Part shown: positions 1 to 12,399 of the stretch, one piece after another
Layout of the letters: the number at the start of each line of letters is the position of its first letter
How positions within the stretch are numbered: position 1 is the first letter of the stretch
Source: a virus
Strand: one strand, 5' to 3'
Virus genome (UHGV): UHGV-1779463
DNA: 12,399 nt
Translations under genes and position numbers: made by a program
Notes under the pieces: model-generated
Told to the model about the DNA's origin: nothing
Database searches by the model: none
Seen by the model: the letters and a program-made list of their open reading frames with translations, nothing else

Positions 1-197
1 ATTTACGGTTTTTATGTGGTTTTAGGGATAAACACAAGGATGGTGTCCCCTGCAGGAATCGAAAATTAAACTAAAAGATTGAATTATAACTTATTTGTCT
101 TTCGATTTTGGTGGGTGCCCCAGTAGGTGCCCCCAGGTATTATGGTCAGAAATGCTGGCTTTTAGCAGATGAAACAAGCCTGACGACCTTTCAAAGG

Positions 198-824
198 TTA
201 TTCTGATTTTACGACTGACAGCTCACTTTTTATACGGTAGTAAGTCGCTCGGCTGATTCCTGCTGCCTTCATGATGAGTTCAGGTTTTACTCCTTGCTCC
301 AACATCTCTCTAACGATCTCTCGGGCTTCCTGATTTTTCTCCCTGCCAATGTATATTCCTTCGCTTTTAGCTCGCTCAATGCCTTGCTGTTGGCGTTTAC
401 GACGTGTTTCGTAATCCTGCCGTGCCATTGTGGCAAGGATATCAATCAACATGGCATTTACGGCTCTCAGGATGCCGCTGGTTAGGTCATTGCCTGCCAT
501 CTCGACCATCTGCCAGCTCGTTGGTAAATCCATTGATACGATGATTAACCCTTTTCGGTTGAGCGTATCTTTCAGTTCGACCCATGCGCTATGTTCTAGG
601 CGACTCAGACGATCTATAGCTTCCACTAGCAACAGATCGCCGGACTGGGCTTCAGACAATAGCCGCATAAGCTCTACGCGCTCAAGCTTCGCCCCGCTAG
701 CATTTTCTATATACTCTCCTGCAATCTGCCAGCCTTTTGATTTTGAAAATTCACGTAGGCTGGTAAGTGCTCGATCAGCGTGTTGCCCCTCAGTTGATGC
801 TCGGCAGTAAATTCTAACGTTCAT
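198..824 (-). CDS. Serine recombinase (resolvase/invertase family) with C-terminal HTH
   Basis: 208-aa ORF. N-terminal YCRASTEGQ matches the catalytic-serine motif of small serine recombinases; LLVEAIDRLSR matches the conserved D-R-L-x-R segment; C-terminal GISRATYYRI is HTH-like. Start has a weak GAGA Shine-Dalgarno; stop TAA at 198-200. Confidence 0.9.
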   Translation of the reverse strand: MNVRIYCRASTEGQHADRALTSLREFSKSKGWQIAGEYIENASGAKLERVELMRLLSEAQSGDLLLVEAIDRLSRLEHSAWVELKDTLNRKGLIIVSMDLPTSWQMVEMAGNDLTSGILRAVNAMLIDILATMARQDYETRRKRQQQGIERAKSEGIYIGREKNQEAREIVREMLEQGVKPELIMKAAGISRATYYRIKSELSVVKSE

Positions 825-830
825 TGCATT

Positions 831-1080
831 GTCTCAATAGGGTTGTGAATATAAGTGCAAATGATACATAATGCATTTTGTGTAGTCAAAATGTTCCTAT
901 ACAACCCTATTGAGACTTTGTATCACCTTGTCATTACGGTATACCCTATTGAGAGGGGGATGATAGCTGGTAGTTCCGGTTTACCGTTAATCAGGCATAA
1001 CGCAAATTTGCGTTATGCCTCAAACATCAATGTTTACTCTTCCAACTGCCGCTATCTTGCTGGTTCTTGATAACCCTACT
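831..1080. repeat. Cluster of at least four copies of an AACCCTAYTGAGA-like motif upstream of the serine recombinase
   Basis: 831-846 gtctcaatagggttgt is the exact reverse complement of 901-916 acaaccctattgagac (16 bp). A direct 12-bp copy accctattgaga lies at 943-954 and a degenerate copy aaccctact at 1072-1080. The first copy overlaps the recombinase ribosome-binding region. Confidence 0.7.
993..1020. promoter_or_regulatory. 28-bp perfect palindrome, candidate protein-binding site
   Basis: aggcataacgcaaa / tttgcgttatgcct is exactly self-complementary (14+14 bp). No T-tract follows on either strand, so it is unlikely to be an intrinsic terminator. Confidence 0.45.
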
Positions 1081-1187
1081 CATTGGGGGATAGTTGGAAG
1101 AAATAGCCCGACACCGCTTTACCCGTATGGGATAATCATTGACTGTAGCTGGTGGTCAGCCAATCTTAAACATGGAACTTATTGATT

Positions 1188-1394
1188 ATGGAAAAGACAC
1201 TGAAAGAGTTGCGTGAATGGTTGTTACTATCCCCTGGTTATCCCGAAAGCAATCTCGATCTGGAAAGATGGGGATATGATGACTACGCCATTATCGGTAA
1301 TGTAGGTGATGCTGAGGCTATGCTGGGTTTGCCTCCAGATTGCCTGGAGATGGATAAGTCGCAGATTGTTTTCGACACTAGCGATCTTGAATAG
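1188..1394 (+). CDS. Hypothetical small protein (about 68 aa); start uncertain (ATG 1188, or TTG 1182 as in the ORF track)
   Basis: Protein-like composition (MEKTLKELREWLLL...), unlike the overlapping W/C-rich ORF 1306-1566. Weak ribosome-binding site; G+C similar to the backbone rather than the cargo. Confidence 0.35.
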   Translation: MEKTLKELREWLLLSPGYPESNLDLERWGYDDYAIIGNVGDAEAMLGLPPDCLEMDKSQIVFDTSDLE

Positions 1395-1803
1395 CCTAAA
1401 TCATCAATATACACCCCTCTGGGATGTGTTTACATGGTCGGATAAGACAAAATATGAGTATTCGCATCCAGTTGACTACCCATTTGCATGTTGCTTGACC
1501 ATCTTCAGTAACATATGCAGAAGGGTGCGGGCAACCTTAAGCGAGAAGCGGATCTATCAGTCCTAAAGTGCAAAAGGGCGATCTAGTCACATTGAGACAT
1601 TAATTACATTAGGGTATGTTAAGCCCATTGGCGGGCACTATGATGGGTTCAAGTAGGTAATCATCATTTAATGGACTAGTCCTATATAGCCAGAACACAG
1701 ATAGCAAGTTCAGACACCATCTTTTGTACCTCGAAAACTCAAAAAGGATGGGTCAGTTTTAGTCGGCGACAACAGGTTTAAATAAGCAATTTAAGGGGGG
1801 GAT

Positions 1804-2133
1804 ATGGATTTTTTAACAAGTACTCTGCTATCAGGAATACTCTATGATGGGTTTAAGAACGGCGTTGCAATAACTACAGGTTTCTTGAAAGAAAAGCTAC
1901 ATGGATGGATTGTTGACGATACTTTATTGGAGACTTTAGCTTATAAAGTAAATACTCTTGAGCTTAAGGATTATGGAGAGCATGTTATCGAGCGAAAATT
2001 GAACGAATCATCAGAAATACAGCAAATTTTAAAACTGATTCAGCCTGAGCAAAACACGAATATTGGGTCAGTGACTCAGAATCACAGTGGTTCTGGTGAT
2101 AACATTATTGGAAACAAAAATATATACAAATAG
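1804..2133 (+). CDS. Small protein (109 aa) with a hydrophobic N-terminal segment and a C-terminal motif HSGSGDNIIGNKNIYK shared with the downstream gene
   Basis: Strong Shine-Dalgarno (aaggggggg) 3-5 nt upstream of the ATG. AT-rich like the downstream large ORF. The C-terminal motif is repeated at the N-terminus of ORF 2146-5430 with many synonymous nucleotide differences, implying protein-level conservation. Confidence 0.7.
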   Translation: MDFLTSTLLSGILYDGFKNGVAITTGFLKEKLHGWIVDDTLLETLAYKVNTLELKDYGEHVIERKLNESSEIQQILKLIQPEQNTNIGSVTQNHSGSGDNIIGNKNIYK

Positions 2134-2145
2134 AAGAAATGGACG

Positions 2146-5100
2146 ATGATGGTAGATCAAATACACAGTGGCGTAGGTGACAATATCATAGGTGATAAAT
2201 ACGAATATATAATTCGTAGTATTAAATCTAGGGATCTGCGGACTGTTATAGACAGTATAATGAGAGATATTTGCTATAGAGAATTAGGCAGAGTTCGTGA
2301 AAAGCTAGACGTTCTTAATAATATTCATTCATTAGAAAATGATGTATATCTACTATTGAATGCTTTGAATGTAAAGCTTGAGTTGGTAAAAGGCTCGATA
2401 TCATCATCAAAAAATGATCTTCTAAAATTGCTACAGAACAATGACCTCCCTGGTGATGTTCGTGAGGTCATTACATCTATATTGATCGATTTGGAATCGA
2501 GAACCTCTGAAGAGTTAGCTAAAAAAAGATATTCAGATTTAAAAATAGATGGGTTCTATCTCAAAGAGGTGTTCTTTGAGCGATTAGCCTCAATGGAAGA
2601 GCTATCTAAAAGCTATCATAACACAGAGGTTTATGATTTATCCGAGCAAGAGTTAACTGGATTAGTTCGCGGTGCTTTAAGAGTCCAAGATTTTGTTTTT
2701 GCGTTTGAACTGGCTCAGAATCTGGATAAGTATTATTCATCCAATAATTCAAGGATTCTTCGGCTATACACTGAAACCTGTTTACTCATAACTCGAAACC
2801 AACGTAATCATTATGTTTCACTTAGTAAACAGGAAAAAGATAATGTTGACCGGTTAATAATCCAATTACTAGCTGATATTGATGACGGAAAAGATGATAG
2901 ATATATCGCTGTTTTAACCAATTTGCTTAAACTTACCTATTTTTCAGATAGTCGACTTTATAATTTAGGAAAGTTGCATATTGATAAAGTTAGGGAGATA
3001 GACTCCTTTTCTGCGGAGTATCTAGAGCAGTCCTCAATAGGAATGAGCACTCCCGATATTAAATTTGAATTAGTATCTGATGTTTTGGATTTGGAAAAGT
3101 TTTCATTTCTTATTTTTGCTATTGAGAATAATCAGATGAAAGCTAAAGACGTAAATAACTGGATAGACAATGGAGGGATAATTGAAACAGGAGATGATTA
3201 TATTAATTCCTTCTTGAACTTGTACCTTAGGGCGCTAGTATGTTCGGTTGACGATAAGAATGAAATCCAACTGCTGGATAAAAAAGCGCAAGATTTTTTA
3301 GAATTAGATTCTAAAAAGTTTATGCTAATAAACCCTGCGAACATATTAAACTTATGCGATAAATTTATTTTATGTAATTTACCATTGAACGCGGTTAATT
3401 ATCTCACCCCATTGTTATCTGATGAAGCTTGGGTATCTCCGATTTTCGAATGTTATCTTAACGCTCTATTTCTCAGTGATAAGATTGATTTATTTTTAAA
3501 TAAAATAAAGCACTTAGAACCATGCGATAAAACAGAGCTAATTTATTTAAGAGAAGCCCAAGTGTACGACCGATTAGATGAATATGAGCTATCAATAAAA
3601 TCGATCAGATTTGCAATTGAAATTTCACCAAACAACCCTTATTCCTGGTACTTATTGCTGCACACATCAAGAAAAAATGGGGGGGATGCGCAATTTCTTA
3701 AAGAAATTGTTTTTGAGATCCCAGAAGTTATTTTTTCTACCTACGATGAGTCAAAGATCACATTAGTTAATGAAATAGCGACTTATATTGATATACACAT
3801 TGCGGAGAGAGTGCTTGTTGATTGGTTTGTCCAAAACCCAGTAAAAGTGGCAAAGCCTTTGACCCAGATTCACGCAAACTCATTGATAAATAGCCAAAAA
3901 GTTAATAGTAATCCACTTGTCCCTAATAAGTGTGGGGATGGTATTACATATTCTGATGGGTTTGAAACATTTACCCGAATTCTTGTACGTGACGTTGAGG
4001 CTAGTCATCCGTGCTTGTTGGAAATAGAGTCACCACTTGGACAGATTCTCGAGAATATGCAGGAAGGAGATTGTTCTGGTGACTTTACAATGATTAAGCG
4101 TGTGCCTCCTTACGTCGCAGTATTTAGGCAGGCTGTGGAGCTTCGCAGTAAAGGTAACGATGGTACTGATGTTTTCAGACAATTTTCTCTACCTCCTCAT
4201 GAAGAGGAATTCATTCCTTATTTTGAGAATATTCTAAAACGATATTCTACGAAAGATAAAGAAAGGGATGCAGTATTGCATACCCCCAATATACCTTTAA
4301 CGATGAAAGGCAATTTTACGGATCCTACAGACCCTGTAAGAGGGGCTATAACACATTTAACGTCAATTACATCAACCAAATATTTGGAGTTATTCAATAG
4401 TGGAGAAGAAACACCAAATAAGGTAATTATTGATGTGTATACGGCTGTTTATTTCTCATTAATGGGTTTTTCTTCAGCTGTAGTAGATTCGAATATAGAA
4501 ATAATTGTATGTAAATATACAAAGCAAGTATTGGAAGGGTGGATTGAAAATATTCTAAGAGAAGACTACATGTCTATAGGTGTATCTGATAAAGGACTTT
4601 ATAGAGTCACATCTGAAGATATTCGAAGGGATTCATGTGATTTTATTCATAATCTCCAGATATTACTTGAATTTGTAACAGTAGAACCGCTGAAACCAGC
4701 AGATACACCAGAGTTATTAGTTAAAGTAAGAGATTTGGTTGATTGGGCTGTTTACTCTACCTTCCAGCTTTCTATAGCAAATAGTATCCCATTGCTTAGC
4801 ATTGACCATTTGATGTGTGAATTAGCGTATAGTTCAGAGTATCCAACGGCAAATATGAATTCCTTTGTCATGAGGATTTTAAACTCTTTATCTTTGCCGG
4901 AAAGAAAAAAAAGCATTCAAACTAACTTATCTTCGGGTACACCTGTTCCAATTTTGTATGATGATATATTATATCTCAGCCGCTCAGCAGAAATTTCTGA
5001 TACATACTTAGTATTCAAGTTTATGGAAAAATATGGAGAAACCATTTCTGCAACAGGATCTTCTCTAAACTACCTAACTGCAATTGTGAGAAACGTAACA

Positions 5101-5430
5101 GTGATGGCTTGCATAGATGGAGCTATTTTAGCTGGTGGTAGAGCACACAATCCACGGTATGATGGATATGTTGAGCATGTTTTTAATTATTGCTGTCGCT
5201 CTGCAATAGTTAATCTGGATGGTGAAACTGCTGAACAAAGATTAGCATTACTAATCTATAATGTAATAGATATGCCTCGAAGAGTTCGTAAATACTTGGA
5301 ATTGATATCATTGCTGACTACTGAGTTCACAATAGGACATTTTCTGGATATTAAAGCATGTAATGAGAGCCTGGTTGCTTGTCAGAATGGTAAAAAAATA
5401 GATGAGCAAGGGAGTATTGAAGCAAGTTAA
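2146..5430 (+). CDS. Large uncharacterised protein (1094 aa), AT-rich, with TPR-like helical repeats and no P-loop; candidate sensor/effector of a defence-type system
   Basis: A 3.3-kb ORF with no antisense ORF of 60 aa or more. N-terminus IHSGVGDNIIGDKYEY repeats the C-terminal motif of the upstream ORF. TPR-like segment around ELIYLREAQVYDRLDEYELSIKSIRFAIEISPNNPYSWYLLL. No GxxxxGK[ST] found on manual scan. Weak ribosome-binding site; starts 12 nt after the upstream stop in the same frame. Confidence 0.9.
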   Translation: MMVDQIHSGVGDNIIGDKYEYIIRSIKSRDLRTVIDSIMRDICYRELGRVREKLDVLNNIHSLENDVYLLLNALNVKLELVKGSISSSKNDLLKLLQNNDLPGDVREVITSILIDLESRTSEELAKKRYSDLKIDGFYLKEVFFERLASMEELSKSYHNTEVYDLSEQELTGLVRGALRVQDFVFAFELAQNLDKYYSSNNSRILRLYTETCLLITRNQRNHYVSLSKQEKDNVDRLIIQLLADIDDGKDDRYIAVLTNLLKLTYFSDSRLYNLGKLHIDKVREIDSFSAEYLEQSSIGMSTPDIKFELVSDVLDLEKFSFLIFAIENNQMKAKDVNNWIDNGGIIETGDDYINSFLNLYLRALVCSVDDKNEIQLLDKKAQDFLELDSKKFMLINPANILNLCDKFILCNLPLNAVNYLTPLLSDEAWVSPIFECYLNALFLSDKIDLFLNKIKHLEPCDKTELIYLREAQVYDRLDEYELSIKSIRFAIEISPNNPYSWYLLLHTSRKNGGDAQFLKEIVFEIPEVIFSTYDESKITLVNEIATYIDIHIAERVLVDWFVQNPVKVAKPLTQIHANSLINSQKVNSNPLVPNKCGDGITYSDGFETFTRILVRDVEASHPCLLEIESPLGQILENMQEGDCSGDFTMIKRVPPYVAVFRQAVELRSKGNDGTDVFRQFSLPPHEEEFIPYFENILKRYSTKDKERDAVLHTPNIPLTMKGNFTDPTDPVRGAITHLTSITSTKYLELFNSGEETPNKVIIDVYTAVYFSLMGFSSAVVDSNIEIIVCKYTKQVLEGWIENILREDYMSIGVSDKGLYRVTSEDIRRDSCDFIHNLQILLEFVTVEPLKPADTPELLVKVRDLVDWAVYSTFQLSIANSIPLLSIDHLMCELAYSSEYPTANMNSFVMRILNSLSLPERKKSIQTNLSSGTPVPILYDDILYLSRSAEISDTYLVFKFMEKYGETISATGSSLNYLTAIVRNVTVMACIDGAILAGGRAHNPRYDGYVEHVFNYCCRSAIVNLDGETAEQRLALLIYNVIDMPRRVRKYLELISLLTTEFTIGHFLDIKACNESLVACQNGKKIDEQGSIEAS

Positions 5431-5506
5431 TCATTGTCAGATGAACTATTATAGTGATTGGATTTAGAACAATCAAAAATATAAATTGGTACAAGCTGTG
5501 TCCCTT

Positions 5507-5537
5507 AACCAATGATGTGACCTGCTCGTCATTGGTT
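5507..5537 (+). terminator. Hairpin downstream of the large ORF (9-bp stem aaccaatga/tcattggtt, 13-nt loop); weak terminator candidate
   Basis: Exact 9-bp inverted repeat about 80 bp after the stop at 5430, followed by tttattcc. The stem is AT-rich and the loop long, so confidence is low. Confidence 0.25.
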
Positions 5538-6020
5538 TATTCCTAACGTCCGCTTTAGGCACAGCCGACTGCCAGGTACTGCCAGGTAAGGTATCAATAT
5601 CGCCCGTCTGACCTGAGGATCATCATTGGATTTATTTTTGGGATGGTTAAGTAACATGTTAAAGGAAACTAACTCAGGTACAATTATGCAAAAAATTGCT
5701 TCTATGTGGTTTAAATTCACGACTGAGATTTCTACGTGAATTCAACCTAAGAAATACCGGTAAAATCGCTTATAAAGTTGATGTTATGTTGATGGTTTTT
5801 TTCTGGGGTTTTGATTGCCAGATATCTCTATTGGATTGTTTTTTATGTAATTAATGATGAGCTTAAGCGATGCCTGCTAACGTCAACACATTCTTATAAA
5901 GTGATTAATTTCTATAAGTACTTTTTCTAAAAAATTGATTTTTACGGATGGATGCCCATCAATGGAAAATCATTTTTTTCTAAGACTTTGATCTTTTATT
6001 GATGGTGTTAGTTGGGACTC

Positions 6021-6052
6021 CGGTCATCGAGCGCGATGCGCTCTTCTGACCG
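6021..6052. other. GC-rich interrupted stem-loop
   Basis: cggtca-tc-gagcgc-gat-gcgctc-ttc-tgaccg: outer 6-bp and inner 6-bp stems are exact reverse complements. Followed on the plus strand by tttcaatg. Lies in the convergent intergenic region, orientation ambiguous. Confidence 0.3.
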
Positions 6053-6183
6053 TTTCAATGGATAGGTTCGCCTTCTTGCGCCTCTCGCTGCGTTTGCCGC
6101 GCTCCGCGCTTTTGGCTGTTTGGCAGGCATATTTCTCTTATTATTGGTCGTTTTTTGCTCTGCCTTGTCACGATCTGTCACTA

Positions 6184-7236
6184 CTAGTAGTAATGGTCAT
6201 AACCTCCGCTTTCTCTTCTGGCTCTGGATGCTCTCACTCGTGCTTTTCTTAACATCCTTAACAGCGGGTGGGTTTGTACTTTGTTCGAGTTTATTATCTG
6301 TGAGGATAGTAACTCCCTACGCTCTGTCTCTGCCTCTTTGGTGACCGCTATCACTGATAAGTCCCAATCGTGCTTGCTAATTAACGGTGCTTCGAATGGG
6401 GCGATTGGTGAGCGATTTATGTCTTGCCGTTTTAATGTACGCTGTATCTGCCGCTTAGATTTGTAGTTGTCTTTCCTTGATGCCTGAACGGCTTTTAGTA
6501 TGCGTCTTACAGCATGAAAGCCAGTGACAGAAAGTGTTTCTTTTTTTATCTCATGCCGCGCCCAGCCATTCGAATAACCCCAAACGCTGGCATCTGACCA
6601 ATCATATAGGCTCTTGCTCGCCTCTCTATTAAAGTCATTTAACTTAGTTTCGGGCTTTGCCATGTAATCAATTTGTTTACCTATATGCTTGGTAGGCTCT
6701 GAATATTGCTGACCTTTCAAATCTAGATCCCACTGAGGAGGAACATTTGATGGGATTGCATTGTTTGCCAGTGTTACCCATTTGCTGACAATTTTGCCAG
6801 CTTGCCCATTAATGCTTCTTTCGTTCACCATGATTATTGCGTGTACATGCGGCTCTGACTGGTGTTGAGCCCACTCCATGACGTAAACCCACTGATTGCC
6901 TTTCGAAGTCAACCATCTGGTAAGTGCCTTTAACGCTTTGTTGAATTTCTCTGGCGTTGTTCCCTTAACGGGTCTGAAGGTAAAGGAGTAGGGGATACCA
7001 CTAGTTGATTCGACATCCAGAGTAAACAAAGCTCGCCTCATTGTACGCCATTTCTTCTTTGTCCAGGCTGGTGGTATGCAGTGGTTAGCCTTTGATGATT
7101 GGCGTTTATTCTCTGCCTTTAATTCATTACGTTTGTGCGTAACTGATTTCACATAAGCTAATGTGCGACCATTGATGTGATTGATTACGGCTTGTGATTT
7201 TGTGGATAGACTCGCGTCTTTATCGTATAATTCCAT
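6184..7236 (-). CDS. HUH-motif replication-initiator-like protein (rolling-circle Rep / inovirus Gp2-like)
   Basis: 350-aa ORF with three motifs in canonical Rep order and spacing: ALFTLDV (motif I-like), EPHVHAIIMV (His-hydrophobic-His) and IDYMAKP (YxxK catalytic tyrosine). No clear Shine-Dalgarno. Confidence 0.75.
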   Translation of the reverse strand: MELYDKDASLSTKSQAVINHINGRTLAYVKSVTHKRNELKAENKRQSSKANHCIPPAWTKKKWRTMRRALFTLDVESTSGIPYSFTFRPVKGTTPEKFNKALKALTRWLTSKGNQWVYVMEWAQHQSEPHVHAIIMVNERSINGQAGKIVSKWVTLANNAIPSNVPPQWDLDLKGQQYSEPTKHIGKQIDYMAKPETKLNDFNREASKSLYDWSDASVWGYSNGWARHEIKKETLSVTGFHAVRRILKAVQASRKDNYKSKRQIQRTLKRQDINRSPIAPFEAPLISKHDWDLSVIAVTKEAETERRELLSSQIINSNKVQTHPLLRMLRKARVRASRARRESGGYDHYY

Positions 7237-7265
7237 GTGTAAAGTTCATATATTTCAATTGCTTC

Positions 7266-7292
7266 AAAGCCGACTCTCGCAAAGTCGGCTTT
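7266..7292. other. 10-bp perfect inverted repeat hairpin (aaagccgact ... agtcggcttt) between the 128-aa ORF and the Rep-like gene
   Basis: Exact reverse-complement arms with a 7-nt loop. On the plus strand it is followed by ctgctttg; on the minus strand it sits between a stop at 7305 and a start at 7236. Could be a terminator/attenuator or operator. Confidence 0.35.
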
Positions 7293-7304
7293 CTGCTTTG
7301 TCAA

Positions 7305-7691
7305 TCACAGGTATTTGGTTTCAATACCCTTGTAAACAGTTCTAAGCGTGTCTTCAGGCACTTTACCCACCAGCCCACGCAACAACGACAACGTTATGTT
7401 TACCTTACGCAATGTCTTTACATATCTGGCGTTCGTCCTCCAGATCTTCAATGTTTCGTCTTTATCGCTGTGGTATGCTTCTAAATTGCGTTCTGTGACG
7501 TGATACGCCCCTGTTTTAAACTGCTCAACAGGAATTCCCCAATCGTTGCGTAACAGCGTTAAAACGCGACTACGTTCGTGATTTCCGGCTTTCCTTAATA
7601 TGTCGTCAAACTCTTTTGGGGTAAGCTTCCTGCCACTTAGTAGGATATCGCGTATATTCGCGGCGACCTGAGAGCGTGTAAGAGTGCTCAT
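7305..7691 (-). CDS. Hypothetical protein (128 aa)
   Basis: Strong Shine-Dalgarno (ggggggacgaa before the ATG); 4-nt overlap with the upstream HTH gene, suggesting translational coupling. No recognisable motif. Confidence 0.6.
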   Translation of the reverse strand: MSTLTRSQVAANIRDILLSGRKLTPKEFDDILRKAGNHERSRVLTLLRNDWGIPVEQFKTGAYHVTERNLEAYHSDKDETLKIWRTNARYVKTLRKVNITLSLLRGLVGKVPEDTLRTVYKGIETKYL

Positions 7692-7882
7692 TTTCGTCCC
7701 CCCAGAAATCTGTCGGCAAATTGATCAAGGCAGGAGGCAAGCCACACCCGGCGCTTGCGACCATTGATGGTCTGATTTATATAGGGAGGAAAGCTTCGGA
7801 TATATCGCTTTAACTGATAGAAGCGTGACAGACAGACGCCAAGATATTCTGCTGCGTCTTTAGCGGTCAGGTAATTAATCAT
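7688..7882 (-). CDS. Small helix-turn-helix DNA-binding protein (excisionase/HTH_17-like)
   Basis: N-terminal LTAKDAAEYLGV followed by a basic GRKRRVW segment is the typical pattern of excisionase-type HTH proteins. Shine-Dalgarno AGGGA 5 nt upstream. Confidence 0.65.
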   Translation of the reverse strand: MINYLTAKDAAEYLGVCLSRFYQLKRYIRSFPPYINQTINGRKRRVWLASCLDQFADRFLGGRK

Positions 7883-7963
7883 TTTATTCCCTTACTGTTG
7901 TACCAAAATGCAATACGGAGGAGACTTCCTGTCTCCCCAAATTACTCTACAATTTTTGTGCGA

Positions 7964-8155
7964 TTAAATCAGATCTATTACTAAGTAATCATCGCCAGAG
8001 GCAATGCCGATAGCTTTTCCACCGCTGGTGGATTTCACATCATAAACCCTGGTGCTGGTGCTCACCTTTTGTGGCTCTGATCTAATCAGTGCCGCGAAGG
8101 TTTCAAAATCAACATGGGTTACGTTCAGCTTTTGATTGGTAGGTTTCAACTGCAT
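7964..8155 (-). CDS. Hypothetical small protein (63 aa)
   Basis: ORF co-oriented within the element backbone; weak ribosome-binding site; no recognisable motif. Confidence 0.4.
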   Translation of the reverse strand: MQLKPTNQKLNVTHVDFETFAALIRSEPQKVSTSTRVYDVKSTSGGKAIGIASGDDYLVIDLI

Positions 8156-8203
8156 TCTTAATACCTAATAACGTATTGTTTGTATCCTGTTTGTTTCTGT
8201 TCT

Positions 8204-8395
8204 TTAGTTGCTACGCGATTCGGCTATACGTTGATCGATCCAGTCATCGATCTCGCTTTCAATAAAAGCTATTGCGCGAGCACCAATCTTGACTGATTGG
8301 GGGAATTGTCCTCGGCTCATCAGAGCATATACCCACGCCTTGCTATAGCCAGTGCGTTTCAAAACCTCAGATAGCCGAATCAGCGACTTTTTCAT
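8204..8395 (-). CDS. alpA: AlpA-family phage transcriptional regulator
   Basis: 63 aa. IRLSEVLKRTGYSKAWVYALMSRGQFPQSVKIGARAIAFIESEIDDWI matches the AlpA pattern (HTH, then P-x-K-I/L-G-x-R-A-x-A-W-x-E-S-E-I-D/E-x-W). Shine-Dalgarno GAGGT 5 nt upstream. Confidence 0.85.
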   Translation of the reverse strand: MKKSLIRLSEVLKRTGYSKAWVYALMSRGQFPQSVKIGARAIAFIESEIDDWIDQRIAESRSN

Positions 8396-8462
8396 ATCTA
8401 CCTCGTAATACGTTGCTTGACTATGTGAGATAGTAAATCATTGTTTTTTTAAGTTTTCTGTG

Positions 8463-8595
8463 AATTTGGAGAAAAAATTTTTGGGAATAGAATTACCCCA
8501 AATTGGGCGTTATTTTTTAGTTCTAACGCACAATTTGGGAACATCCTTCCTTTATTTTGGACGCTTTTTGGTTGCTTTGTTCTTAAATTTGGGGG
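8463..8595. repeat. Iterated AATTTGG(G) motifs in the alpA-upstream region
   Basis: Exact aatttgg at 8463-8469, 8532-8538 and 8586-8592; an inverted copy within cccaaattggg (8498-8507); variants at about 8478 and 8554. Some copies extend into the 3' end of the 251-aa ORF. Confidence 0.45.
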
Positions 8596-9307
8596 CGTAC
8601 TTATCCAAAGCGTTCGTTAGCAATCTCCGAAATGTATCTGGGTGGGTATCGCTGTCTTCATCGTTCCCGAATATTATGTTGTTTTCTATTACTTGGGCAC
8701 TAACCCTATTGATACTAAGGTTTCCTCCACTATGGAAATCTTTGCTTGATTCAAATAAGGCAATCGCCATTCCGGCGATCATCTTTAAAGCCGTATCTTT
8801 TCCTCTCCAGTTTTGTTCTCTTTCTACTTTTTTTGACAGTGCTCCAATTTCTGGTTCGTTATCTGGAACATTCATATCCAGTTCTGGAAAGAAGTTCACA
8901 ACCTCGGATCGCTTGAAATAAAACGAATCGTAAGACCCATACCAATCATCCTCATCATCGTGATATAAAAAGTCTTCTCCTTTCCTAACGTTGAAAGTCC
9001 CTTCTTCCCCCGGTATCGGGCTCTCCCTGTATTCATGCCCCATAGCCAGAAGACCTAAAAACTCCACACACTGCTTTTCAAAGTCTTCATTTGTCGTAAA
9101 ACCAGATACCCAATCGAACTGATAAAAGCCCAGCCCCCCTAAAGTATCTGGTTTAGTCTTGCTCAATCTGTAGTTACTTAAGATAGCGGCAGCTATCATT
9201 CTTTCATTTTCATTGTTTAGTCTTGCCAGTTCGCTGATCAGATTACCAAACCAGATTTTATCTTCTGACTCGTTATAAAACGCATCTAGTCCTGTCATCT
9301 TAGTCAC
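8552..9307 (-). CDS. Hypothetical protein (251 aa), translationally coupled to the integrase
   Basis: Long ORF. Probable GTG start at 9305-9307 with Shine-Dalgarno gaaggagaa, overlapping the integrase stop by 8 nt (alternative ATG at 9296-9298). Acidic, aromatic-rich sequence with no recognisable motif. Confidence 0.65.
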   Translation of the reverse strand: MTKMTGLDAFYNESEDKIWFGNLISELARLNNENERMIAAAILSNYRLSKTKPDTLGGLGFYQFDWVSGFTTNEDFEKQCVEFLGLLAMGHEYRESPIPGEEGTFNVRKGEDFLYHDDEDDWYGSYDSFYFKRSEVVNFFPELDMNVPDNEPEIGALSKKVEREQNWRGKDTALKMIAGMAIALFESSKDFHSGGNLSINRVSAQVIENNIIFGNDEDSDTHPDTFRRLLTNALDKYAPKFKNKATKKRPK

Positions 9308-10622
9308 GGCGTGTTCTCCTTCCGAACTCGTAAGGGCTTATGTGTATTTCTCGATTGGCGTCCAGATAATCTGCCCACCATTGAAGCATTAGTTTGCGCT
9401 CTTCTAAGTAATCAGCCTTGTGCTTGTAGGCTCTTTTAACGTCTTTATATTCTTTGTGGCTCATCTGGCGCTCTACTGCGTCCTCCTGCCACAAACCGGA
9501 CTCCATCAGGGAACTACAGGCTGTGGCACGGAATCCATGTCCAGTTACGTCCTCTTGCGTGTTATAGCCCATTAAGCGTAATGCCTTGTTTACCGTGTTT
9601 TCACTCATCACGCCTTTGGTGTTTCTTTCATTCGGAAACACAACATCGTAGCTTCCGCTTAGTTCTCTCAACTGCTTTACAATAGAAACAGCCTGACGGC
9701 TAAGAAGCACGATATGTTCGTCTTTTCCCGTCTTTGTGCCACGGGTGGAAAACCTCACACCATCGATAGGCTCTCTTTTTTTAGGGATAATCCACTCAGC
9801 CCGATCAAGGTCAAACTCTTTCCAACGGGCAAACCTTAACTCGCTTGAACGAACAAAGGTCAACATGGTTAGCTCAATGGCAAGGCGGGTAAGAGGATTA
9901 CCTTTAAAGCTGCCCAATCGAGTGAAAAAGTCTGGTAAATCTCTGGGATGTAGTGCGGCATGATGCTTAGTTTCATATTGCATTAACCGGACATCGAGAT
10001 CATTCGTGATGATTTCTGTCTTAATGCCGCTCAGACGGGCGCTATGTATGATGTCCTTAACTCGTTGTTTAAGTCGGTTGGCTGTATCGTGTTTCCCGGC
10101 GTCATCTACCTTCTTAAACAAAGGTAAAATTGTCATCGCCTCCAGTTTGCGAATATCCGAAGTGCCAATGTGAGGGAAAATATACATTTCAAGGCTTCTA
10201 AGTACGCGTTTTCGGTGGGCTTCGTTCCACATCTGGTGGCTTTCAACCCATTGACGTCCTATTGTCTCAAAAGTGAATGCACCTTTTTCTTCTGCTTTTG
10301 CTGCTCTTTGCTCTGCTTTGGGATCTATCCCCTTGACTAACAACTTTTTGGCGTTGTCTCGTTTTTCTCTGGCGTCTTGTAAGCTAATGGTTGGATAAGC
10401 CAGTTTGCTAGCCGGGTTTAAGGTGATACCGATCGCCGCAACATTGATGATGGCGTTCTGTGCGCTGGTTGGATTTGCCAGTGCTGTTTTAGCCAGGTAA
10501 TCGTTTTTCTGGAAATACTGAATTGCAAACTGGCTTTCCTTAGCCCATGTCACCGTCTGTTCAGTCAATGCTCCGCAGAATAACTGCTCCTGCTGTTTAA
10601 CGAATTCAACGATATTGCTCAT
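9300..10622 (-). CDS. int: Tyrosine recombinase / phage integrase (P4-like family) with a non-canonical N-terminal ~75 aa
   Basis: C-terminal catalytic signatures are present: VRSSELR (box I Arg), HGFRATACS (H-x-x-R), and RAYKHKADYLEERKLMLQWWADYLD (catalytic Tyr and the MxQ-WADYLD hallmark). The N-terminal arm-binding region is replaced by unrelated sequence. Shine-Dalgarno GGAG 8 nt upstream; ATGA overlap with the upstream ORF. Confidence 0.9.
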   Translation of the reverse strand: MSNIVEFVKQQEQLFCGALTEQTVTWAKESQFAIQYFQKNDYLAKTALANPTSAQNAIINVAAIGITLNPASKLAYPTISLQDAREKRDNAKKLLVKGIDPKAEQRAAKAEEKGAFTFETIGRQWVESHQMWNEAHRKRVLRSLEMYIFPHIGTSDIRKLEAMTILPLFKKVDDAGKHDTANRLKQRVKDIIHSARLSGIKTEIITNDLDVRLMQYETKHHAALHPRDLPDFFTRLGSFKGNPLTRLAIELTMLTFVRSSELRFARWKEFDLDRAEWIIPKKREPIDGVRFSTRGTKTGKDEHIVLLSRQAVSIVKQLRELSGSYDVVFPNERNTKGVMSENTVNKALRLMGYNTQEDVTGHGFRATACSSLMESGLWQEDAVERQMSHKEYKDVKRAYKHKADYLEERKLMLQWWADYLDANREIHISPYEFGRRTRRD

Positions 10623-10930
10623 GCAGCTTCTCCAAAAATGTGTCTGCGTTTGAATATTGCGAAGGCATATTCAGCCTTAACTCTTTCGGTTATTGCATCC
10701 CAGAACCATTCAGCGGCTTTTTCCTGATAGTTACAGTCATCATCTTCCAGCCAGTCGATAGCGTCCTTAGTGTGTTCATCTGGTTTATATGAGCGAAGCA
10801 TTTCGCTTATTGGGTCGCAACGTTTGCAGAGGCGATCAACTTCACTGTTGATTCGTTCGTAATCTTCATCAGTAAAACTTGCGATTATTTGCGATATTTC
10901 ACGCTTATCATTCAGAGTCAGAATCATCAT
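10619..10930 (-). CDS. Hypothetical phage protein (103 aa)
   Basis: Strong Shine-Dalgarno (acaggagaaag before the ATG); its TGA stop overlaps the integrase-ORF ATG. Acidic protein of unknown function. Confidence 0.6.
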   Translation of the reverse strand: MMILTLNDKREISQIIASFTDEDYERINSEVDRLCKRCDPISEMLRSYKPDEHTKDAIDWLEDDDCNYQEKAAEWFWDAITERVKAEYAFAIFKRRHIFGEAA

Positions 10931-11011
10931 CTTTCTCCTGTTCTTTGTGCTGATTGAGCATTTTGTTCATCTGACGAATGAATTCTTCGTCTGACCAGTT
11001 ATCTGTAAAAC

Positions 11012-11182
11012 TCATGGACGGCCTTGTTGTTTCAAAATATCCCAAAGCTTTTCGAGCAAACTTTTCATTCTTGGTTGTTTAAAGTCTGCTCCGGTTAAAA
11101 TATTTTTTCGTGAATGCTGTACCGATAAAATCGGGTTGAAAGGGCGAACCGATGCCGCCCCTGCAATAGCGAACTGTTGCAT
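11012..11182 (-). CDS. Hypothetical small protein (56 aa from the internal ATG; the ORF track extends it to 11287)
   Basis: The internal ATG at 11180-11182 is preceded by a strong Shine-Dalgarno (GGAG about 7 nt upstream). The longer 91-aa form begins with a Cys-rich, hydrophobic stretch and has no ribosome-binding site. Confidence 0.45.
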   Translation of the reverse strand: MQQFAIAGAASVRPFNPILSVQHSRKNILTGADFKQPRMKSLLEKLWDILKQQGRP

Positions 11183-11365
11183 AGGATGCTCCTTCTGTTT
11201 GATTGCATAACGAAAACGCCTCGAGTGAAGCGTTATTGGTATGCATATAAAAAGGCCCTCACACTGGAGGGCAAAGAAGATTTCCAATAATCAGAACAAG
11301 TCGGCTCCTGTTTAGTTACGAGCGACATTGCTCACATAGCAGACTCGCAAATCTACTATAGGTGC

Positions 11366-11524
11366 TTATTCGCATCGCATGACAACATCAAATTTTTCGA
11401 GATTACTTTGTCGCAACAATCCCTCTTCTACGCGGTCAGCTTTTCTATAATTATCAAATTCGAAATGTTTAATTACTTCTTTCGTTTCTCGCTCTATAAC
11501 TTCAACGATGTATTTCTTATTCAT
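11366..11524 (-). CDS. Hypothetical small protein (52 aa), not in the supplied ORF track
   Basis: Hand translation gives MNKKYIVEVIERETKEVIKHFEFDNYRKADRVEEGLLRQSNLEKFDVVMRCE. Shine-Dalgarno AGGTGA 6 nt upstream; its ATG overlaps the stop of the upstream gene by one nucleotide. Confidence 0.4.
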   Translation of the reverse strand: MNKKYIVEVIERETKEVIKHFEFDNYRKADRVEEGLLRQSNLEKFDVVMRCE

Positions 11525-11820
11525 TACTCATCACCTATGGCTTTTCTGATTGCTGCGAGACCTTTATTAACAGCTCCATACCATTCTGGATATGTTGTCG
11601 TTGTTCTATTTTTGGTTTGCTTAAGTAATAACTGAAGTGCTTCGAGAAGGTCAGGTGCTGCCGCTATTAGATTGGCATCTTCAATGCATTGAACTTCCTC
11701 ACAGATTGCAATATACGAACGCCAGCCTGCGCCATTTTCAAGTGAGTCTGCCTGGATTATTTTAATCTCATCGTCATCCATCATTATTTCCCACTTACCT
11801 TCAGTACCTTTAAATTCCAT
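11524..11820 (-). CDS. Small phage protein (about 98 aa) with an AAPDLLEAL motif, reminiscent of Ead/Ea22-like early proteins
   Basis: The ATG at 11818-11820 has a GAGG Shine-Dalgarno 6 nt upstream; the ORF-track extension to 11940 overlaps the upstream gene and passes through a terminator-like hairpin. The family name is recalled from the motif, not verified. Confidence 0.55.
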   Translation of the reverse strand: MEFKGTEGKWEIMMDDDEIKIIQADSLENGAGWRSYIAICEEVQCIEDANLIAAAPDLLEALQLLLKQTKNRTTTTYPEWYGAVNKGLAAIRKAIGDE

Positions 11821-11840
11821 GTTAGCCTCTGTTGTTAGTG

Positions 11841-11868
11841 CCAAAAATAAAGGCCGACTATGCGGCCT
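11841..11868 (-). terminator. Intrinsic-terminator-like hairpin after the 156-aa gene
   Basis: Minus strand reads AGGCCG-CATAGT-CGGCCT followed by TTATTTTTGG: a 6-bp GC-rich stem, 6-nt loop and T-tract. The stem overlaps the TAG stop at 11867-11869. Confidence 0.45.
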
Positions 11869-12337
11869 AGTAGAATACCCAATTTTCTGTTTCTTGGTTG
11901 TGTCCAAAGTTATATTCAATATCTGGTGTTGATGTATCAATATTCTTCATCCCATCAACAAGAGTTGATACAACAGCCAAATCTTGTTTGATTCTCATTA
12001 AATGGTATTTCTTCCGGCGCAATAAACTCTCAATGGCAAGTTTCTTCGTTGGGAATGCAAAAGATCTTTCTGCATTTTTTGCTACTTTCTTAATTGCATA
12101 TCTATTTCTCCTTTGTTTCCATTCCCGTAACCACTGATTTGGTGCTGGTTTAAAATCAACAATCCAATGCGCAGGAACCAACCATGCATAATGCTCTGTC
12201 TGATGAAAAGCTATATATTGAAGTGCGAATATTTTGATTCCATCTTCTTCAACTGTCGCTTGGAATCTCCAGAAAACAGGCATTCCATCATGTTCAGTTT
12301 CTGATTCAGGAAAAGGTACGCTCCATGATTTTGTCAT
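11867..12337 (-). CDS. Hypothetical phage protein (156 aa)
   Basis: Strong Shine-Dalgarno (GAGGTGA 3-4 nt before the ATG); protein-like composition; followed by a terminator-like hairpin. Confidence 0.6.
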   Translation of the reverse strand: MTKSWSVPFPESETEHDGMPVFWRFQATVEEDGIKIFALQYIAFHQTEHYAWLVPAHWIVDFKPAPNQWLREWKQRRNRYAIKKVAKNAERSFAFPTKKLAIESLLRRKKYHLMRIKQDLAVVSTLVDGMKNIDTSTPDIEYNFGHNQETENWVFY

Positions 12338-12399
12338 ATCTCACCTCAAATAAGTGGTTTGCTGCCTAATTTCATTTTCTGGCGACCAACACAAGTCAT

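Follow-up and report, generated by a model that had tools for sequence, protein, structure and literature searches.

A candidate integrative rolling-circle replicon at tRNA-Arg argW of Enterobacteriaceae, with exchangeable and probably defensive cargo, in virus genome UHGV-1779463

Many defence systems of Escherichia coli reside on "integrase-only" islands whose movement is unexplained (PMC10121019). Among phage satellites the nearest analogue of the island described here is PICMI (phage-inducible chromosomal minimalist island) of Vibrionaceae, a small element that carries an integrase gene (int), an int-overlapping gene, alpA, a replication gene and defence cargo and has no packaging or capsid genes. 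In PICMI115 int, the gene iolg and alpA are needed for excision and concatemers are packaged in spite of the missing packaging genes; rolling-circle-type replication into concatemers has been proposed, and AlpA acts like an excisionase (PMC10803314). For phage-inducible chromosomal islands (PICIs) the SatelliteFinder model looks for int and alpA, for a primase/replicase and for components of the capsid or of packaging, and it regards hits with three components as unreliable (PMC10085698). We analysed the virus genome UHGV-1779463, a stretch of 12,399 nt hereafter called the window, in which an earlier note had drawn a PICI-like element at 6184-10622. That interval turned out to hold the right-hand half of an island together with 225 nt of a prophage recT gene; the element itself runs from 40 to 10397 and includes a GapS6a/GapS6b cargo and a serine recombinase gene.

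We propose that the window island is one copy of a family of integrative elements of ~8-10.5 kb that insert at the 3' end of tRNA-Arg argW in Enterobacteriaceae, and that this family is an integrative rolling-circle replicon with swappable, probably defensive cargo. We put the probability of this reading at about 0.55, one figure for the whole explanation including the two-module composition of the island, its proposed life cycle and the deletion history of the window copy. The family appears to be undescribed in the literature searched (pEC4365, PF23343 and argW defence hotspots). The features on which the proposal is built are:

40-63, no strand: outer attachment (att) site on the dsdC side, with the 16-nt core ATGGTGTCCCCTGCAG at 40-55
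955-5876, plus strand: variable cargo slot, with orf70 at 1182-1394, gapS6a at 1804-2133 and gapS6b at 2146-5430
6184-7236, minus strand: HUH rolling-circle replication initiator (Rep) of 350 aa, from its PF23343 match, motifs and fold
9300-10397, minus strand: 5'-truncated gene of a P4-type tyrosine integrase, residues 64-428 of 428, most of the arm-binding domain gone

Comparing the whole element among genomes and searching for its att repeats and target, as the earlier note had advised, led to argW, the repeats being copies of the 3' end of this tRNA gene. Window positions 41-63 are a 23-nt copy of that end, identical to the tRNA gene in locus L017 (L numbers denote compared loci), and the window itself contains no tRNA gene. 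In strain E2 (L001) a 10.4-kb block lies between direct repeats of ATGGTGTCCCCTGCAG, and the same repeat borders the intact island in L017. This core is identical to positions 2-17 of the att core of phage Kapi1, which was reported at the 3' end of tRNA argW (PMC8787464). The island is solitary at argW in six of the eight genomes sampled (L017, L018, L030-L033), in the order yfdC, argW, int through recombinase, att, and dsdC or csc. In the other two (L001, L002) a Kapi1-like prophage separates the island from argW, the two elements being in tandem and torI, the gene of the prophage excisionase, facing the island int across the shared att copy. E. coli 127 (CP023377), for example, has an intact solitary island, and strain E2 (CP104509) a tandem one.

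Megablast of complete E. coli genomes matched window positions 1-10397 at 99.9-100% identity in about 20 genomes; at least 80% of the backbone was present in 213 of 5426 genomes (~4%) and fragments in 543. A GapS6-bearing island in E. albertii is 99.4% identical, and the int-to-orf128 stretch of a Citrobacter island is 96-97% identical at the nucleotide level, the variable C-terminal part of orf251 excepted, which together argue for recent horizontal spread. The gene order from int to rep in this Citrobacter contig (L006, Citrobacter sp. Awk 4) is that of E. coli, as is the gene order of a Klebsiella island (L034) that adjoins yfdC and has its argW att repeats ~8.1 kb apart. A search for related loci from the closer alignment returned two species representatives only. 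In the window, co-oriented minus-strand genes run from 12337 down to 6184, seven of the minus-strand open reading frames (ORFs) falling within 6184-10622, beyond which lie two plus-strand genes at 1804-5430 and, at 198-824, one more on the minus strand.

The HUH-type replication gene with visible motifs I, II and III, claimed in the earlier note, held up in profile searches. Rep matches PF23343 (REP_ORF2-G2P) at 29.7 bits against a cut-off of 27.8, and its motifs are T86/L87 (I), P129-H130-V-H132 (II) and Y191-MA-K194 (III, YxxK). The motifs are kept across 21 distant homologues, in the alignment of which E121, P129, H130, H132, W153, Q177, Y191 and K194 are invariant and T86 and L87 nearly so. 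All 21 match PF23343, ten match Helitron_like_N and one has a weak match to PF20199 RepSA (E=0.007). An AlphaFold model based on the 21-sequence alignment (a model from six sequences reached pLDDT 39 and was set aside) matches in its predicted fold solved HUH nucleases, namely the nuclease domain of parvovirus NS1, IS608 TnpA, Helraiser, pMV158 RepB and the Rep proteins of adeno-associated virus (AAV) and circoviruses, and among BFVD models it resembles ORF2/G2P-domain proteins and microvirus initiators. A PDB sequence search with the single Rep sequence gave no match, and a profile search of PDB gave sub-threshold matches only, though to HUH proteins, motif II aligning with the HLH of 7vg8_A ("Replication-associated protein"). 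Based on profile, invariant motifs and fold we consider Rep a genuine HUH initiator. Its family is very small, with 8 word-index and 29 HMMER matches among 1.84 billion representatives. Since all 11 islands sampled have the 350-aa ORF open, the shorter database entries of 215 or 285 aa are gene-calling differences, and a pseudogene reading of these entries was rejected.

Downstream of rep, in the Rep sense, lies a conserved DNA module that we regard as a candidate origin:

5912-6043, minus strand (Rep-sense): candidate double-strand origin, proposed from conservation
6029-6043: GC palindrome GAGCGCATCGCGCTC, part of the origin-like module
5973-5989, Rep-sense, downstream of rep: 17-mer AAAGTCTTAGAAAAAAA (core AAAGTCYTAGAAAAAAA)
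5947-5960: hairpin GATGG-GCAT-CCATC, part of the origin-like module
5912-5919: ACTTATAG, part of the origin-like module

The 17-mer AAAGTCYTAGAAAAAAA is exact and always Rep-sense in all 13 loci with the window-type (allele-1) Rep, that is 12 island loci and the window, and it is exact and Rep-sense in six of six small plasmids described below, the chance expectation in the window being 0.04. It is flanked by the conserved blocks TCRATRAC, GAWGGGCWTCC and CTTATA, and in the small hairpin after the A-run four pairs are changed on both sides. In the window the 17-mer also lies within a larger hairpin, with arms at 5956-5972 and 5989-6005; this was set aside, since neither the other islands nor the plasmids conserve it. 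A second Rep allele, 50% identical, occurs in Klebsiella and Citrobacter islands, and in the Klebsiella island (L034) the module is diverged yet homologous (AAACCCTTAGAAAATAA ... GAAGGGCTTTT ... CTTATAG) and sits after a three-gene cargo, not directly after rep. Conservation of a module across replicons with proteins only 24-45% identical, and its divergence in step with Rep, would be expected of a cognate origin.

The two islands with the second allele also present a case of module exchange: compared with the window, L006 and L034 are 96-97% identical in nucleotides from int to orf128, again excepting the C-terminal part of orf251, and carry the other allele of rep.

A tblastn search with Rep matched 16 plasmid records, all from Klebsiella or Enterobacter. 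The small plasmids among them are circles of 5.3-6.3 kb, one record being a head-to-tail dimer, and include pWP7-S17-ESBL-08_3 (AP022186), MGH83 unnamed5 (CP073059), pZ4160-2 (CP124881), pMB7964_2 (CP103581) and the KPC-2 derivative pEC4365 (NC_032098). They have the gene order of the replication half of the island, encoding a DNA-binding protein of ~68 aa, a protein of ~126 aa, a Rep homologue of 369-389 aa, small cargo and a serine recombinase, and they share with the island the module of 17-mer and hairpin. Between plasmids and island the four syntenic homologues are 43-44% (helix-turn-helix (HTH) protein), 40-46% (orf128), 24-29% (Rep) and 29-45% (recombinase) identical. The plasmids have an extra HTH gene of 145 aa and are without integrase, alpA, orf251, orf63 and att site; since these integration-side genes are missing from the plasmids, we propose that the island is a composite of a P4-type integration module and a plasmid backbone. 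The plasmids are typed non-mobilizable and have no other annotated replication gene; our literature search found no paper on the replication of these small plasmids. In pEC4365, compared with CP073059, Tn4401 (KPC-2) is inserted in rep at codon ~73, with a 5-bp overlap between the flanks, and a 319-aa ORF with all HUH motifs is retained.

The window copy differs from intact relatives at its right-hand end, where it is joined to a prophage:

10394-10397, no strand: deletion junction (4-nt microhomology), the island match running up to 10397 and that to the prophage starting at 10394
10398-10622, minus strand: recT codons 1-75 of a lambdoid/P22-like prophage (phrog_148)
10619-12399, minus strand: early-left (pL) operon genes of a Kapi1/lambdoid-type prophage, co-oriented with the backbone and outside the island

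The 440-aa ORF at 9300-10622, taken for an integrase in the earlier note, is a RecT-Int chimera in which prophage RecT codons 1-75 are in frame with Int residues 64-428. PF22022 and PF00589 recognise the central and catalytic integrase domains in it. Its residues 3-76 match phrog_148 RecT, and its residue 76 is residue 64 of the 428-aa P4-type Int of intact relatives; Arm-DNA-bind_3 matches only from profile position 51. The island segment is 99.9% identical to L001 up to 10397, and the recT segment is 98-99% identical to recT of phages Kapi1, HK140 and mEpX1. When the window was compared with 50,697 phage records by megablast, only 10394-12399 matched, corresponding to recT and the kil/cIII/N region of Kapi1, HK140, mEpX1, HK97 and others. 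The island Int is 32% identical to Kapi1 Int. Compared with strain WCHEC040047 (L002), the window is without positions 17956-23036 of that locus (~5.1 kb); besides the att site and torI, this stretch comprises codons 1-63 of int, some ten small early genes and two-thirds of recT, at its 3' end.

Judged by its sequence, the junction is that of a ~5.1-kb microhomology deletion, which would have joined the island to a Kapi1-like prophage using the same att core. The alternative that prophage recT is a natural integration target was rejected, as the junction lies inside int and has no att core, and intact tandem copies have the missing 5.1 kb. Having lost Int residues 1-63, which are most of the arm-binding domain, and the inner att, the window copy should not excise alone and is probably immobile on its own. 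The flanking prophage in turn would have lost torI and the island-side att; two sites would be left to it, one on the dsdC side at 40-63 and one on the argW side, beyond the window. On at least 12 contigs from different human-gut and other samples (L023-L028 among them) the 440-aa RecT'::'Int fusion has exactly the same sequence; L023 has cro, cI, N and the kil/cIII region upstream of the fusion, and L026 has a different N region there, so that the prophage-island hybrid is a circulating lineage and not a one-off. Since the pL genes and the island backbone lie in one orientation with no att between them, N-antiterminated transcription could reach recT'::'int, orf251, alpA and rep; such pL read-through into the island genes is our speculation by analogy with lambda.

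The prophage genes at 10619-12337 (minus strand) belong to phrog_3486, phrog_1273 and phrog_1636, PHROG families without assigned function, in a lambdoid/P22-like early-left operon. Contigs related to the window have a 98-aa neighbour with PF27050 Phage_P22_Y8K6, and the N peptide, KilA-N, cI and cro lie further upstream.

Junctions of other kinds were seen elsewhere. All O157:H7 genomes sampled (e.g. EDL933, CP008957 3284290-3285313; L013-L016) keep a remnant consisting of Rep residues 112-350 and the origin-like module, which adjoins a P22-like tail needle knob gene and is another prophage-island deletion. In IMGVR_UViG_645058835_000001 (L007), positions 1-13104, a degraded P22-like prophage with an IntS-type integrase, an O-antigen polymerase-like gene, a tailspike, a truncated DnaB, Abc2 and Ead is joined directly to an intact island rep, after which follows a cargo of SIR2 and STAND-NTPase genes. 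The database proteins P0007 and P0008 are chimeras (Rad52::Rep and Int::Rep) and likewise point to in-frame deletions recurring in this family. These repeated independent deletions suggest that tandem occupancy of the site is unstable.

The earlier note had remarked that elements with such a backbone often bear defence cargo, and the slot between the two backbone parts fits this. The window is homologous to the island of strain WCHEC040047, which has a different cargo, only over 41-954 and 5877-10397, and GC content is 33-36% in the cargo as against 42-48% in the backbone. In NCBIfam GapS6a matches NF047935 at 120.3 bits (cut-off 90) and GapS6b matches NF047936 at 1063.7 bits (cut-off 850); GapS6b has tetratricopeptide repeats (TPR) and a PIN domain and also matches PF20698 PIN-TPR-GreABC, and both genes are complete and 12 nt apart. 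By these matches the window cargo is a GapS6a/GapS6b (GAPS6) anti-phage system, recognised by NCBIfam and not by PADLOC (2023 version). Experiments have shown that the GAPS6 family, whose first validation came from Vibrio GMT islands, protects E. coli against phages (bioRxiv 10.1101/2023.03.28.534373). At least seven different cargo sets occupy the slot while the backbone stays conserved: GapS6 in the window, E2 and E. albertii, a pair of 2.5-kb and 1.0-kb genes, an AAA ATPase, a GTPase-domain protein with a partner, a ParA-like protein, an HNH_2 gene set in Klebsiella, and SIR2 with a STAND NTPase in a remnant island. The exchangeable cargo is mostly defence-like.

The other parts of the backbone are:

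198-824, minus strand: serine recombinase of resolvase/invertase type, 208 aa (PF00239, E=2e-23), the last island gene, inside the att repeats
825-954, no strand: conserved backbone segment upstream of the recombinase gene, by homology to L002
6008-6181, minus strand: ORF57, basic, 57 aa, beginning 2 nt past the rep stop; region conserved as DNA
7266-7292, no strand: 10-bp GC-rich hairpin AAAGCCGACT...AGTCGGCTTT in the 68-nt gap between orf128 and rep
7305-7691, minus strand: orf128, conserved Rep partner, no family match
7688-7882, minus strand: HTH_17/MerR-type DNA-binding protein, 64 aa (PF12728, E=7e-5; 23.5 bits, below the 27-bit cut-off)
7964-8155, minus strand: orf63, small island-specific protein, kept in islands L005 and L006 and missing from the plasmids
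8204-8395, minus strand: AlpA-family winged-helix protein (PF05930, E=3.6e-18)
8552-9307, minus strand: orf251, int-overlapping gene with an 8-nt overlap with the int stop

Both the coupled ORF next to the integrase and the alpA-like gene of the earlier note are among these, the former being the 251-aa orf251; the HTH gene it named is present as a family match whose score lies under the threshold. The AlpA-family protein is probably an excisionase or activator; it is 32% identical to Kapi1 Xis/TorI over 38 aa. We regard orf251 as a positional analogue of PICMI iolg. Its homologues with a named organism are from Escherichia only, and similar int-adjacent genes occur in the islands of Citrobacter and Klebsiella. 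Set against L006, L018 and L033, orf251 is a mosaic: the first ~430-440 nt are 96-98% identical whereas the 3' part is not alignable by blastn, so that the N-terminal ~145 aa are conserved and whole-protein identity is 68-73% while neighbours exceed 95%. The variable C-terminal part could be a variable specificity domain.

On the replication side the HTH gene is the first of the plasmid-type rep operon, its stop overlapping the orf128 start (ATGA), and the strong hairpin that separates orf128 from rep may attenuate rep expression or act as a terminator. Whether ORF57 is a gene or a cis-acting region is uncertain because it overlaps the conserved palindrome GAGCGCATCGCGCTC. The serine recombinase, 45% identical to the recombinase of plasmid L003, is probably a multimer resolvase, and the segment at 825-954 upstream of it, within a stretch (41-954) of 99.6% identity to L002, would be its promoter or a res site. 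The backbone appears to be under selection: the ratio of non-synonymous to synonymous divergence (dN/dS) is 0.03-0.11 in int, 0 in alpA (three comparisons, none with a non-synonymous change), 0.23-0.29 in rep and between 0.06 and 0.5 in the remaining backbone genes, all from small counts.

As the earlier note had stated, packaging genes are missing: in Pfam and PHROGs the seven backbone ORFs had no match to any family of packaging, capsid or primase proteins, and the same holds for NCBIfam, where the cargo genes and the recombinase were included (orf70 and ORF57 were not scanned). For orf251, orf128 and orf63 Pfam, PHROGs and NCBIfam gave no family match at all, and they may have a novel function.

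The life cycle that we propose draws on general knowledge of HUH nicking by the motif III tyrosine, of the roles of P4-type integrases and AlpA-family excisionases, and of resolvase function. An integration module of P4-type int, orf251, alpA and orf63 would be joined to a plasmid-type module consisting of the HTH regulator, orf128, the HUH Rep, the origin-like DNA, the cargo slot and the serine recombinase. Int and AlpA, the latter as excisionase or activator, perhaps with orf251, would excise the island as a circle; Rep would nick the conserved module (core AAAGTCYTAGAAAAAAA beside the small hairpin) via Tyr191 to start rolling-circle amplification; the serine recombinase would resolve multimers, and the circle would re-integrate at argW. 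The window copy would derive from an island once in tandem with a Kapi1-like prophage, the ~5.1-kb deletion having produced the RecT'::'Int fusion and left the backbone genes immediately downstream of the prophage pL operon and in its orientation.

Several observations weigh against this proposal. No excised circle, free plasmid form or copy-number change was observed, and the 554 matches in complete E. coli genomes are all chromosomal. The candidate origin is assigned by conservation, the consensus hairpin is weak (-5.7 kcal/mol by RNAalifold), and promoter-like sites, 13 as compared with 14.3 in shuffled sequence, are not above chance. The role given to orf251 is a positional analogy, and the serine recombinase may alternatively be an invertase or serve another purpose. 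The Tn4401 insertion in pEC4365 implies that this plasmid either can do without Rep or needs no more than an N-terminally truncated form of it.

We rank the integrative rolling-circle replicon first, a satellite second and conjugative mobilisation third. The island could be a helper-dependent, minimalist, PICMI-like satellite, in which a helper (e.g. Kapi1/P22-like) induces alpA, followed by excision, rolling-circle concatemers and headful packaging with no capsid-remodelling genes of its own. The order of int, int-overlapping gene, alpA and replication gene is the PICMI115 gene set (PMC10803314), and rolling-circle concatemers would suit headful packaging; the att core is common to Kapi1, a Kapi1-like prophage is sometimes in tandem, Kapi1 has been proven to help another island, a PICI (PMC11773190), defence cargo is carried as in many satellites, and Hochhauser et al. 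proposed integrase-only defence islands as possible uncharacterised satellites (PMC10121019). Nevertheless, no primase, terS, capsid or packaging-redirection gene was found, window positions 1-10393 had no match in the phage records by megablast, which means that no shared pac or cos is evident, and Rep had no phage homologue in the same records by tblastn. In addition, six of the eight sampled islands have no adjacent prophage, the replication half is common to free plasmids, and the IMG/VR matches to the island are prophage predictions from isolate genomes rather than virion DNA. We consider the satellite reading unlikely, although of the alternatives it survives best. A bolder version, more doubtful still, makes the argW islands a new class of minimalist enterobacterial satellite in which a plasmid-derived HUH replicon has replaced the primase and a helper packages the concatemers; an island in tandem downstream of a Kapi1-like prophage could be activated in cis, N-antiterminated transcription from pL passing through the shared att, which we liken to the escape synthesis of gal from a lambda prophage, and the fused copy would be a permanent phage capture of defence cargo and replicon.

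An integrative mobilizable element, whose HUH protein is mainly a relaxase and whose conserved module is an oriT, the circle being moved by a co-resident conjugative plasmid or ICE (an element both integrative and conjugative), is improbable. It is generally known that HUH Rep-type proteins act as relaxases in some such elements, and Rep does match the MobA/VirD2 relaxase nuclease domain PF03432 below threshold (E=0.006, 17.3 bits against a cut-off of 24.6); the spread of the island across genera would also fit. Yet the Rep family is one of phage and plasmid initiators, by PF23343 in 21 of 21 members and by microvirus or ORF2/G2P fold, the related small plasmids are typed non-mobilizable and have no other annotated replication gene, and the island contains no coupling protein or other mobilisation gene. 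It is more improbable still that the family is an inert remnant, a genomic island or defence island in decay at a tRNA site prone to recombination, with no excision or replication activity left in any member. The truncated window copy, the many deletion remnants (the O157:H7 Rep fragment, L007, P0007 and P0008) and the lack of a free plasmid form in complete E. coli genomes speak for decay, whereas intact att-bounded copies with all genes open, dN/dS of 0-0.5, an intact Rep in 11 of 11 islands, near-identical copies in different species and genera and the conserved origin-like module speak against it. That the backbone belongs to the flanking lambdoid prophage as an ordinary arm, the integrase, excisionase and morons being those of the phage, which the earlier note had named as a refutation of its reading, can hardly be right, for although in the window the island genes extend the pL operon with no att between and IMG/VR pipelines place them in predicted proviruses, the same 10 kb is att-bounded and solitary at argW in most sampled genomes, no phage among the 50,697 records carries it, and the prophage junction is a deletion inside two genes.

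For annotation, our results imply that the 440-aa "integrase" is a RecT-Int fusion and that "replication protein" calls of 215 aa and 285 aa should be extended to 350 aa. Tandem residence of island and prophage at one tRNA site gives rise, by deletion, to chimeric genes and prophage-island hybrids. The relation of chromosomal defence islands to tiny untypable Klebsiella plasmids, one of them with KPC-2, suggests a route for cargo between plasmids and the chromosome.

How then does the argW island relate to known systems? The earlier note had likened the gene order to that of P4, CP4-57 and Gram-negative PICIs. The likeness is real in order and type: with Gram-negative PICIs of the EcCICFT073 and EcCIMP1 type and with P4/CP4-57 the island shares a P4-family integrase with Arm-DNA-bind_3, a downstream AlpA, tRNA-type integration and cargo. 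Membership is another matter. Of the components of the PICI model only int (428 aa in intact copies, truncated in the window) and alpA downstream of int are present; Pfam, PHROGs and NCBIfam revealed no primase or helicase family for a primase/replicase and, among the backbone ORFs, no capsid-morphogenesis or packaging component, and the P4 markers psu, delta, sid, epsilon and alpha (primase) were not detected in Pfam or PHROGs. In lacking psu/delta/sid/epsilon, a primase or helicase, and genes for capsid morphogenesis or packaging redirection, the island differs from PICIs and P4. Lacking primase, packaging genes and homologues in phage records, it is not a PICI or P4 member. EcCIMP1, the Kapi1-dependent PICI, was rejected as a relative, as it has a primase and sits at proA-yagU (PMC11773190).

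With PICMI the island has int, alpA and an int-overlapping gene in common, the match of the latter being a positional one. PICMI has a DUF3987/DUF5906 primase, integrates next to fis and has been shown experimentally to be induced and transduced by phage (PMC10803314). In contrast, the argW island has a HUH Rep with plasmid relatives and targets argW in Enterobacteriaceae hosts.

Integrative elements of Actinobacteria offer another parallel. The actinomycete integrative and conjugative elements (AICEs) of pSAM2 type have a tyrosine integrase, an excisionase and a HUH Rep (RepSA) that amplifies the excised circle, and they integrate in tRNA genes. They are a functional analogue of the argW island and differ from it in their FtsK-like Tra, which serves conjugative transfer, and in their Actinobacteria hosts, whereas the argW island has no transfer gene and a Rep of another subfamily (PF23343).

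The integrase-only defence islands resemble the argW island in carrying defence genes at a tRNA hotspot with an integrase or recombinase and without recognised mobility machinery (PMC10121019); dsdC, yfdC and tRNA-Arg are not mentioned in the main text of that study. It leaves the mechanism of mobilisation open, and to this the argW island adds a replication initiator and a candidate origin. The argW family, occurring in E. coli, E. albertii, Citrobacter and Klebsiella, offers a concrete mechanism for such islands, namely a rolling-circle replicon and candidate origin combined with a P4-type integration module, with a slot for exchangeable defence genes beside the candidate origin, between rep and the recombinase gene. 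In sum, the argW island is best understood as a new variation, from enterobacteria, on the theme of integrative plasmids, serving as a carrier of defence genes.

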